Shown in pieces: positions 11,916-21,282 of a stretch of DNA of 64,000 nucleotides (position 1 is the first letter of the stretch; each line of letters starts with the position of its first letter). This DNA comes from Escherichia coli (GTDB lineage Bacteria; Pseudomonadota; Gammaproteobacteria; Enterobacterales; Enterobacteriaceae). The notes beneath the pieces were generated by a model. That model ran no database searches and had not been told where the DNA came from. It worked only from the letters and a program-made list of their open reading frames with translations. The position numbers and the translations under genes were made by a program. The stretch is from the NCBI RefSeq assembly GCF_003018255.1, contig NZ_CP027440.1; one strand, 5' to 3'.

Positions 11916-13181
11916 TTACTTCAGCATAAAGTCATACTGAATACTCATTTTCACATCCCAGTAATTCAGGCGATCGCCCAGCGCACTGCCATCTCGCTTT
12001 TCCTGCCCTTTATCGGCAGCAAGAAAGAAATTCATCCCTTGTAACGGCCCTTCGCTGACCCGATAGTTCATACCACCTAAGATACCCGCGCCTTCAATCC
12101 GCACATCTCGTTTACTGGATTCATAGCCGCGAGTCACAATCGGTGCAAATGTCAGTGTAAATTGCGGCGTTAAACGATAGTTGACGCCCAATTGCCAGGA
12201 CTGCATTCCTTCACGGTTACGATCAAGACTTAATGAAAAGGGATAGCCAATGTCGGTATCCACCACGGCACCATTCATTGCATGGCGCAAATAACCACCA
12301 CTGCCAAATACGCTTCCCCACGGCGCATTCCAGGTCAATTGTCCACTAACCAACGCCGTTTCATTGGGCTGCCTGGTATTACGACTTAAACCTTCGAGTT
12401 GCGCGTAAAAGCCGAGCAACTCCCCTTTCAACGTATAATTCGGGTCGAGCGGTATGCTTTTCTCGAGAATACTTTGTATCTGATTGGATACATCTTTCTG
12501 TACCGATGCCCCCAGAGAATAGCGACTGGTATCATCATGCCAACTGGCGGCTAAAAAAGAACGTGCGCGATGTTTATCGTATTTTCCCGTCTGGCTGTTA
12601 TACACCCCTTCATCACGAATACCGGTTGTTGAATCGGTCCATAAAAATACTCGTGACCGCCACATTCCCCACAGATCAATATTTGGCGTTAAAGCCCAAT
12701 AACCTAATGCTCCTTCAGAAACTGTCGGTAATGTACGTTGCGAACTGCCAGCCATTAACGGAATACGATAAGGTAAGCTACCATAACTATAATCCGTCCC
12801 GAAGCGACCTAATTTAAGCAGGCTATTTTCACTGGGTTTTATTTTTACTGCCCCCAGGGCAAAGCCAAAACTTTTATCACCATCAAGATACCACCGGGTA
12901 CTCATATCAGCACGAGCACCTAATTTATAAACATAATACGCCCCGCCTTCAACGCCAATAATATTGGAATAATAACCACTATTGAAATCGAGCAATCCTC
13001 CCTGTACCCATGCGTAAATATCTCTTCCCGTGCCAGCACTGGGCTTATCAGCCCTGCGTAATTCGTTTTTCAGTCTGATGCGTAGTCCCGCTTCATCGTC
13101 AGCCGGTTGCGCCGCATAAGCAGAGGTAAGGCCAGAGGCAGCCGTCAGGCAAATAACGGCCATGGCCACTATTTTTCTCAT
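11916..13181 (-). CDS. uidC: outer membrane porin-like protein of the glucuronide operon
   Basis: 421 aa with signal peptide, ends in aromatic residue context typical of beta-barrels; downstream of uidB. Confidence 0.85.
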   Translation of the reverse strand: MRKIVAMAVICLTAASGLTSAYAAQPADDEAGLRIRLKNELRRADKPSAGTGRDIYAWVQGGLLDFNSGYYSNIIGVEGGAYYVYKLGARADMSTRWYLDGDKSFGFALGAVKIKPSENSLLKLGRFGTDYSYGSLPYRIPLMAGSSQRTLPTVSEGALGYWALTPNIDLWGMWRSRVFLWTDSTTGIRDEGVYNSQTGKYDKHRARSFLAASWHDDTSRYSLGASVQKDVSNQIQSILEKSIPLDPNYTLKGELLGFYAQLEGLSRNTRQPNETALVSGQLTWNAPWGSVFGSGGYLRHAMNGAVVDTDIGYPFSLSLDRNREGMQSWQLGVNYRLTPQFTLTFAPIVTRGYESSKRDVRIEGAGILGGMNYRVSEGPLQGMNFFLAADKGQEKRDGSALGDRLNYWDVKMSIQYDFMLK

Positions 13182-13219: not shown

Positions 13220-16462
<3,243 letters not shown>

Positions 16463-16790
16463 CTGTGTTGCACACAGTTATCTGTGAGAAACCCATGGAA
16501 GAGAAATGGAAATAAAAAGAACTGACACCGGGATCAAAAAACCAAAAACTGCAATACCCACAGCGTGATATAGATCGCATTAATCTTTAAAACGGCGTTG
16601 ACAGAAGCCATAAAATAAGCAACCGAACGTTCGTTCGAGCATAATGGGAACGATAAACTCTCATGATATATTGCTACGATGAATATTTAGGTGGGATTCT
16701 CCGATCCCTGGGAGGATGATTTTTGCACAGAGAAATTACGATATGAAACGCGGGCTCAGTTGTCACCAGCCCGCGGAAAGAGAGAGAGGA

Positions 16791-17381
16791 TCAGGATACG
16801 GTTAAGATACCGCCAATCATCGCGCGTAATCCCTGAGCAAACGACGCTTCACGTGCCAGATCTTCCGCTTCGATATCGGCCAGTACACCGTAGGTCAGAT
16901 CCAGCAGTAAACGTGAAGTCATTGCCGTGTTGATGTCTGGGCTTATCTCGCCTTTTTGCTGGGCATCACGCATCCGCTGGGCAACAAATTCCGTGATCGT
17001 CATATGCTTATTTTTAAGCATGGCGGCGACCTGTGGGTTACGCATCCCTTCCGCCATAATTTCGACCACCAGCGCCCGTTGTCCAAAGGCTTCATGGGTG
17101 AGAGATACAATGGACTCGACCATATAGTCAACGAAATGAATCCCTTCAATCGGTTCCCGGAAACGGGCCAGCGCCCTCTCCTGGTCCTGTAAGATAATCG
17201 CCTGAATCAAGGCTTCTTTGGAGATGAAATGGTGATAGAGCGTCCCGGGACTAATGGCGCAAGATTTACAGATGGCTTTCATCGAGGCACTGTGAAATCC
17301 ATTTTCTGAAAAAATCTCTCTGGCAGCATTGAGGATCCGGGTCCGTGTCGGTTGTGCTTCAGTCTGCATGTTATCCATCAT
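16791..17381 (-). CDS. uidR: TetR-family repressor of the uid operon
   Basis: 196 aa; N-terminal TetR HTH; adjacent to uidA. Confidence 0.9.
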   Translation of the reverse strand: MMDNMQTEAQPTRTRILNAAREIFSENGFHSASMKAICKSCAISPGTLYHHFISKEALIQAIILQDQERALARFREPIEGIHFVDYMVESIVSLTHEAFGQRALVVEIMAEGMRNPQVAAMLKNKHMTITEFVAQRMRDAQQKGEISPDINTAMTSRLLLDLTYGVLADIEAEDLAREASFAQGLRAMIGGILTVS

Positions 17382-17484
17382 TAAACCATTATAGTTAGCG
17401 TGAATAACTAGTTTACCGCGTTGTCAGGTGAGCGCCTATCATTGCTGTTGAATAGTGCGAAGGCACACTCTATTCGTATACTTT

Positions 17485-17498
17485 TCACTCGGAAATTG
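17485..17498. promoter_or_regulatory. perfect 14-bp palindrome, candidate UidR/UxuR operator upstream of uidR
   Basis: ATTGGTTAACCAAT in the uidR 5' region. Confidence 0.45.
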
Positions 17499-17601
17499 GT
17501 TAACCAATAGCCGTAATTTGGCTGCCAGTTATTTAGCTGAGACGTTGATGAGTTTATCCCGGTAAACAACACGCACGGTTGTTTACCGGTCCGTTAGTGT
17601 A

Positions 17602-18369
17602 TTAATTGAGCTCCTGTACCCCACCACCGGAGACGGTGAGAATTTGTCCGCTTACCCAGCTGGCTGCAGGCGAGCAAAGGAACAGCGCCGCGTTAGCAAT
17701 ATCTTGCGGTTGGCCCAGACGTCTGATCGGCGTGTGCTGTAACATTTTTTGTTCAATTTCTGGTGTAATAACGGATTTCAGGGCATCGGTTAATATTGCC
17801 CCCGGCGCAATGCCATTCACCCGAATATTTTTTTCACCCAGGTCAAACGCCATATTTCTGACCAGATGACTGGCCGCAGCTTTAGATGATGCATAAGAAG
17901 TCATGTTTATATTTTTATTTTCTGCCGCCATAGAAGTGATGGTCAGAATAACGCCACCGCCATTTTTTTCCATTTCTGGCGCAACAAGTTGTGACAGATG
18001 GAAAAAAGAAAACACATTCAGTTCATAAGCACGGCGAAAATCTGCCATTGGCATATCAAACGGTTTAGGACCACCGCCACCGGCGTTGTTAACCAGGATA
18101 TCAACTTTACCCAGCTTACTGACGGCAAAGTCTGCCAGTGCAGAGAGTTCCTGTTCGGAAGTAATATCACAACGGCAGGCAAATGCCTGACCACCCAGTT
18201 GTTGAATTTCATCAACAACATGGTTAGCTGCGTCGGCGTTAATATCACTGACCACCACAGATGCGCCAGCTGTCGCGAATGTAATGGCAATTTCTTTACC
18301 AATACCTGCACCGGCACCTGTGATGATGGCACATTTTCCGTCGAGTCTCAGGTTGTCAGAATTAAACAC
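17602..18369 (-). CDS. hdhA: 7-alpha-hydroxysteroid dehydrogenase (SDR)
   Basis: 255 aa; GAGAGIG Rossmann motif and SDR catalytic Y-x3-K; recognised HdhA. Confidence 0.92.
   Translation of the reverse strand: MFNSDNLRLDGKCAIITGAGAGIGKEIAITFATAGASVVVSDINADAANHVVDEIQQLGGQAFACRCDITSEQELSALADFAVSKLGKVDILVNNAGGGGPKPFDMPMADFRRAYELNVFSFFHLSQLVAPEMEKNGGGVILTITSMAAENKNINMTSYASSKAAASHLVRNMAFDLGEKNIRVNGIAPGAILTDALKSVITPEIEQKMLQHTPIRRLGQPQDIANAALFLCSPAASWVSGQILTVSGGGVQELN

Positions 18370-18480: not shown

Positions 18481-21282
<2,802 letters not shown>

Follow-up and report, generated by a model that had tools for sequence, protein, structure and literature searches.

A putative UxuR-type operator box upstream of the Escherichia coli uidR gene

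The uid (gus) operon controls bacterial β-glucuronidase, an enzyme that restores the activity of glucuronidated drugs and hormones in the gut, and knowing which repressor acts at which site matters both for engineering uid regulation and for interpreting it. The question raised by this locus is which repressor would recognize a perfect palindrome that lies upstream of uidR (gusR), a repressor gene of the TetR family. A sequence-only reading of the DNA had taken the palindrome as a sign of uidR autoregulation. We analyzed a window of 64 kb of E. coli DNA carrying the hdhA-uidR-uidABC region, all genes of which are on the minus strand (Table 1). The genes were identified with family models and by comparison with complete E. 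coli genomes, of which 5419 out of 5426 gave matches, and in the E. coli arrangement uidR is co-directional with uidA and upstream of it. The class of box discussed below and the control of uidA by UxuR have been published already, as has the assignment of uidR to the UxuR regulon; our analysis corrects the label of autoregulation to one of putative cross-regulation by UxuR and otherwise adds little to the published regulon descriptions.

Table 1. Features of the hdhA-uidR-uidABC region (window positions; a dot marks features given without a strand)
Feature	Position	Strand	Remarks
uidC	11916-13181	-	
uidB	13220-14593	-	
uidA	14590-16401	-	
Second, weaker UxuR-type box near uidA, core TGGTCAACCT	16428-16441	.	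12.6 bits, one core mismatch
Sister box near uidA, ATTAGTTAACCAAT (ATTGGTTAACTAAT in gene direction)	16448-16461	.	13/14 identical to ATTGGTTAACCAAT
GAACGAACGTTCGGTTG, probable UidR/GusR (TetR-family) operator, corresponding to published 'O1'	16620-16636	-	Only copy in the window
uidR (gusR), TetR-family repressor gene	16791-17381 (as annotated)	-	Probable true start codon 17369-17367
Nearly invariant block between box and uidR	17376-17471	-	13 lineages; holds TAGGCG-17-TAAACT and TATAAT
Perfect TATAAT hexamer	17388-17393	-	7 nt before annotated uidR ATG; TATAAT or TATATT in Escherichia
TAGGCG-17-TAAACT, promoter-like	17410-17438	-	Cross-genus alignments
TTAACC-17-TATACG, promoter-like	17475-17503	-	-35 hexamer (17498-17503) inside box
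Perfect palindrome ATTGGTTAACCAAT, putative UxuR-type (GntR/FadR-subfamily) operator box	17495-17508	.	Sequence, matrix, conservation
Perfect 12-bp hairpin past the hdhA stop codon	17559-17589	-	No T run behind; not reported as a terminator
hdhA	17602-18369	-	

The palindrome and its likeness to UxuR operators

The 14-bp perfect palindrome ATTGGTTAACCAAT is indeed present, as a single copy, in the spacer between hdhA and uidR, 114 to 127 nt upstream of the annotated uidR ATG, but it had been placed at 17485-17498, which is wrong by 10 nt. Its core, TGGTTAACCA, occupies positions 17497-17506, and its conserved footprint extends over 17495-17506. The start of uidR had likewise been taken to be 17381, which is the annotated position, but published in vitro ribosome profiling (INRI-seq) and the N-terminal peptide MQTEAQPTR put it at 17369. 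The annotated start is probably four codons too early, the ATG at 17369 being favored; the annotated first ATG is replaced by ACG in two Escherichia lineages, E. whittamii and strain SCPM-O-B-8794.

Perfect palindromes of at least 14 bp are found in the window at the rate expected by chance (five, against a mean of 5.04 in first-order Markov simulations), and we therefore rejected bare palindrome statistics as evidence. The number of matches to ATTGGTTAACCAAT with up to three mismatches is also unremarkable (6 versus 2.9 expected). Copies with at most one mismatch number only two in the window, and both lie within uid regulatory spacers. The significance of the box rests on this placement of its copies, on its rank under a UxuR matrix and on its invariance across lineages, not on palindromy. 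Elsewhere in the window, the malI-malX spacer contains the perfect palindromes TAAAACGTTTTA (19542-19553) and GATAAAACGTTTTATC (19618-19633), which are presumably MalI operators.

The palindrome had been said to share its half-site with an element of the uidA promoter, and this was borne out by the sister box ATTAGTTAACCAAT, which lies 47 to 60 nt upstream of the uidA ATG. E. whittamii has kept this sister box, and so has the remnant of the promoter in strain SCPM-O-B-8794. The sister box and the second, weaker box are 20 bp apart, the same tandem spacing as that of the two boxes upstream of uxuR. An inverted repeat, CTGTGTTGCACACAG (16463-16477), adjoins the uidA-proximal box and is only partly kept in E. 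whittamii and strain SCPM-O-B-8794.

The published UxuR operator is AAATTGGTATACCAATTT. The site upstream of uidR, AAATTGGTTAACCAATAG, equals it at 14 of 18 positions, every arm position included, and the mismatches are confined to the central dinucleotide and to the outermost positions on one side only. Its architecture is TGGT-N2-ACCA with ATT/AAT flanks, the core being TGGT-TA-ACCA with 2 nt between GT and AC. A published comparative study (PMC4494728) gives the interval between GT and AC as 2 nt for UxuR sites, against 3 nt for those of ExuR, FadR and PdhR; neither uidR nor UxuR is mentioned in the supplement text consulted. In K-12, the gntP/uxuA spacer contains two copies of the core TGGTYRACCA, and the region upstream of uxuR has it as a pair of boxes spaced by 20 bp, whereas the ExuR-controlled spacers (exuT/uxaC, uxaB and exuR) contain no TGGTYRACCA box. 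ExuR was rejected as the binder of the uidR-upstream box on both grounds, the GT/AC spacing and the lack of such a box in the spacers that it controls; the boxes of ExuR, PdhR and other members of the FadR subfamily have the same type of TGGT/ACCA arms but 3 nt between GT and AC.

We then scored the window with a UxuR weight matrix trained on uxu-locus sites only, a small set (n = 4), with P values from 1000 simulated windows. The uidR-upstream site (17493-17510) ranked first in the 64 kb with 19.6 bits (P = 0.001), and the uidA-proximal sister box ranked second with 15.7 bits (P = 0.015); the weak uidA box (16426-16443) came eighth with 12.6 bits. Like the UxuR operators at gntP/uxuA and uxuR, the uidR box has TGGT/ACCA arms, ATT/AAT flanks, a 2-nt spacing and a central Y-R dinucleotide, and like them it sits in a control region of glucuronide or glucuronate genes. 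It differs from them in being a lone box and not one of a tandem pair at 20 bp, in lying ~100 bp upstream of conserved promoter-like elements, in not having been recovered by genomic SELEX with UxuR, and in being followed by a gene, uidR, that shows no visible response. We judge, with a probability of roughly 55%, that the protein for which this palindrome serves as an operator-type site is UxuR, the GntR/FadR-family repressor of glucuronate catabolism, and not UidR.

The GusR-linked motif and the question of autoregulation

The competing view is that the palindrome is a UidR/GusR operator through which uidR represses itself, possibly a low-affinity second GusR site. TetR-family repressors are commonly autoregulated, and a 1985 study with a uidR-lacZ fusion reportedly found that the uidR product represses uidR. 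Published work names two sites for GusR upstream of gusA, O1 and O2, and O2 could be the sister box. However, the motif that travels with gusR is a different one. Exactly one copy of GAACGAACGTTCGRTTG, written GAA(C/T)GAACGTTCGRTTG, was found in the gusR-gusA spacer of each of the nine taxa examined, ~220 to 240 bp upstream of gusA and in a constant orientation to it (loci including L005, L008, L010, L012 and L022-L025). On this sequence pattern, GAA(C/T)GAACGTTCGRTTG is probably the UidR/GusR operator. Its E. coli representative corresponds to the published O1, a TetR-family site of high affinity for GusR that PMC9881133 credits to Little et al. 2018. Primers DE6279 and DE6280 delimit an O1 deletion at ~16579-16741, so that GAACGAACGTTCGGTTG falls within the deleted segment and the sister box ATTGGTTAACTAAT outside it. 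In published work, deletion of the O1 region, with the sister box left intact, abolished both GusR-dependent and glucuronide (pNPG)-dependent control. Because control was lost while ATTGGTTAACTAAT was still present, the sister box is insufficient for UidR action.

Upstream of uidR itself (17382-17601), neither a pattern search nor a matrix search found an O1-type motif, the best match to the core having 3 mismatches in 10 positions, and a GusR-type operator at this place was rejected. The class of the uidR-upstream box is, moreover, not specific to gus loci, since the same class occurs at gntP/uxuA and uxuR, promoters with no known link to UidR. O1 and the uidR box belong to the same locus and regulatory system and are both short palindromes (the core of O1 is CGAACGTTCG), but their sequences are unrelated: each gus locus examined has a single copy of the O1 motif, and there is none at uxu loci or ahead of a co-directional gusR. 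We would assign UxuR to the boxes of the ATTGGTTAAC type and UidR/GusR to the site of the CGAACGTTCG type, and we regard a UidR operator at the palindrome as very improbable. Full-text searches of the literature on uidR autoregulation found nothing specific.

In classical TetR-type autoregulation, a single operator is common to the divergent regulator and target genes. Such an arrangement is seen in Enterobacter, Salmonella, Cedecea, Buttiauxella and Pantoea, where divergent gusR and gusA have an O1-type motif in common and where autoregulation is plausible. In E. coli, by contrast, uidR has the O1-type motif on its downstream side and a palindrome of another class on its upstream side. The proposal that uidR is autoregulated through the palindrome is consequently left unsupported, the gusR-linked motif GAACGAACGTTCGRTTG being different and having no copy there. 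The broader proposal, that uidR is under the same repressor(s) as uidA, is supported at the sequence level for UxuR but not for UidR acting through this palindrome. As the box points to UxuR, one of the two repressors of uidA, what it suggests is cross-control, not autoregulation.

Two further observations concern the gusR-gusA spacer. In Enterobacter, a promoter-like TAGAAT hexamer abuts the O1-type motif and points toward gusA. In BL21(DE3), the O1-type motif carries a substitution and reads CGAACGAGCGTTCG (L027, 16494-16510), and just upstream of uidA the strain has TATTTGAATG in place of TATCTTAATG.

Conservation of the box and its apparent attachment to gusR

We aligned the region upstream of uidR from 13 Escherichia lineages, made up of K-12, O157, ST131, ATCC 25922 and further E. 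coli phylogroups together with E. whittamii, one genome of a cryptic clade and one divergent strain. The sequence TTGGTT[A/G]ACCAAT (17506-17495) is invariant in all 13 apart from its central A/G, whereas the seven bases just downstream of it show pairwise differences of 0.5 to 0.67. The central A/G variant gives TGGTTGACCA, the form that is present upstream of uxuR, and the A and T at the two ends of ATTGGTTAACCAAT vary outside E. coli. The conservation of the box is symmetrical over 12 nt, as would be expected if a dimeric protein, and not a -35 hexamer, were its cause.

The box is also retained where its surroundings have changed. In Escherichia sp. MOD1-EC7003 (L006, 4589-5100), the box and an orphan uidR are intact although the upstream neighbor is another gene, uidABC has been deleted and the O1 region has decayed. 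E. coli SCPM-O-B-8794, like MOD1-EC7003, lacks uidABC and retains an intact uidR with its upstream box; in this strain a remnant of the uidA promoter with both boxes is still present (L007, 4586-4860).

A scan of genome contigs gave only three close Escherichia relatives, and more distant species were reached through UidR homologs and the contigs that carry them. UxuR-type boxes lie beside gusA in Enterobacter, Salmonella, Yersinia, Cedecea and Erwinia. In Enterobacter and Cedecea, a second UxuR-type box lies 76 to 94 nt upstream of gusR, so that two boxes, 259 to 285 bp apart, flank the O1 motif; no gusR-proximal UxuR-type box was seen in the Salmonella, Yersinia, Buttiauxella and Pantoea loci. 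Since the box accompanies gusR whichever way the genes are arranged and persists where uidABC is missing, it appears to belong to gusR. A single inversion of the segment [box-gusR] would turn the divergent arrangement into that of E. coli, which likewise ties the box to gusR. In Erwinia sp. S43 (L025, 2203-3591), a gene for a GntR/FCD-family (UxuR/ExuR-like) regulator ends 15 bp before gusR, in a cluster made up of a mannitol-dehydrogenase-family gene, uxaC, the GntR/FCD regulator gene, gusR, gusA and gusB, and the two repressors are thus physically linked there.

Promoters, expression and possible modes of action

How a UxuR-type site at this position could act depends on where uidR transcription starts. 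An RNA polymerase SELEX peak in the hdhA-uidR spacer is experimental, and the hexamers TTAACC-17-TATACG (the Shimada promoter), whose -35 element falls inside the box, were picked in silico and attributed to uidR on the strength of that peak. In other lineages the -10 hexamer reads CATACG, CTTACG, TAAACG or TTCATG, and this lack of conservation makes the function of the element doubtful; as both its hexamers are in silico assignments and the -10 varies, we retain it as no more than a weak possibility for the mechanism. TAGGCG-17-TAAACT, on the other hand, lines up with the TAGGCG-N17-TACACT that precedes gusR in Enterobacter, Cedecea and Salmonella, and it is probably the ancestral gusR promoter. 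The TATAAT hexamer, if it acts as a promoter element, would give a transcription start near 17381 and a 12-nt leader to the ATG at 17369. The center of the box is at about -98 relative to TAGGCG-17-TAAACT and at about -120 relative to the TATAAT element, and in Enterobacter and Cedecea the box is at about -60 relative to the TAGGCG-N17-TACACT counterpart. A 65-bp 'native gusR promoter' fragment, from which GusR protein is still made, contains both TAGGCG-17-TAAACT and TATAAT and excludes the box.

The block of ~100 bp that holds these two promoter-like elements (17376-17471) is better conserved than the flanking spacer, which the two elements explain in part. It matched nothing in Rfam, its RNA folding is ordinary (z = -0.04), and an RNA element in this block was rejected on those two results.

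We infer that a UxuR dimer would bind TTGGTTAACCAA in the absence of fructuronate or glucuronate. From a position ~98 to 120 bp upstream of the conserved uidR promoters, it could restrain only transcription that arrives from further upstream, namely that from the weak TTAACC-17-TATACG element and read-through from hdhA, which is plausible because the hairpin behind hdhA has no T run. The conserved proximal promoters would be left untouched by UxuR at the box, and the effect on total uidR mRNA would therefore be small or conditional. UidR would work at the separate motif GAACGAACGTTCGRTTG between uidR and uidA.

Published binding and expression data bear on the size of such an effect. The published UxuR regulon text lists uidR among the regulator genes controlled by UxuR and describes "uidABR" as activated in a uxuR deletion. 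In the supplementary list of the same paper, uidA, uidB, uidC, gntP, uxuA and uxuB are raised by 6 to 8 log2 units in the uxuR deletion; uidR is absent from that list, which appears to contain large changes only. In an independent BL21(DE3) data set with gusA silenced, which prevents glucuronate formation, gntP, uxuA and uxuB were down 3.3 to 3.85 log2 (10- to 14-fold), and uidR mRNA was unchanged (log2FC -0.07, padj 0.999; counts ~1550-1900 versus ~1660-1990). The gene mapping in this set was confirmed by gene order, and the box was confirmed to be intact in BL21. Published genomic SELEX with UxuR alone recovered the gntP/uxuA spacer only. Taken together, the evidence on UxuR regulation of uidR is mixed and leans against a strong effect, and an effect of UxuR on uidR through the box is unproven. 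The puzzle is that of a well-conserved, near-consensus site with no visible effect on uidR mRNA.

One answer to this puzzle would be that the box serves uidABC, as an auxiliary operator at which bound UxuR would cooperate over ~1 kb with UxuR at the two weaker boxes near uidA, and possibly with UidR at O1, and so tighten the repression of uidA. No other UxuR-type site in the locus is as strong (19.6 bits, against 15.7 and 12.6 at the uidA-proximal boxes), deletion of uxuR raises uidABC by ~6 to 7 log2 with no visible response of uidR, two boxes 259 to 285 bp apart flank the O1 motif in Enterobacter and Cedecea, and the title of a cited paper speaks of 'cooperative regulation of uidA expression'. 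Yet in E. coli a distance of 1047 bp, which takes in a whole gene, separates the two sites. The box goes with gusR whether the genes are divergent or not, it has survived intact in a lineage without uidABC and with a decayed O1, and Salmonella and Yersinia repress with gusA-proximal boxes only. We also know of no evidence for UxuR tetramers. An auxiliary operator of this kind seems to us unlikely. We give slightly less credence still to a distal anchoring operator, in which the box would act over ~1 kb across uidR together with the uidA-proximal boxes and the UidR site; if true, this would provide a strong two-repressor 'cooperative' shut-off of uidABC.

The lack of a visible effect could also mean that the box has no regulatory function, being a chance palindrome or the decaying relic of an ancestral site. 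The chance rate of perfect 14-bp palindromes (5 versus 5.0), the lack of a UxuR SELEX signal and of a uidR mRNA response, and the exclusion of the box from the 'native gusR promoter' fragment would all fit with this. A functionless box is nevertheless hard to reconcile with a matrix score beyond that of 99.9% of simulated windows, with a core that is invariant in 13 lineages amid a hypervariable stretch, lineages with another upstream neighbor included, and with counterparts in two other genera, and we hold it to be quite improbable.

The spacer around the box is variable in other respects. Over the 269-bp region upstream of uidR, more than half of the complete E. coli genomes are merely 90 to 95% identical to the window, and an 8-bp indel polymorphism, GCGTGTGC, lies just past the hdhA hairpin (window 17545-17560; alignment columns 59-66). 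In E. coli GmM062 (L021, 1-400), IS1 has taken the place of the end of hdhA, with the junction ~50 nt upstream of the box, which is intact, as is the promoter block of uidR.
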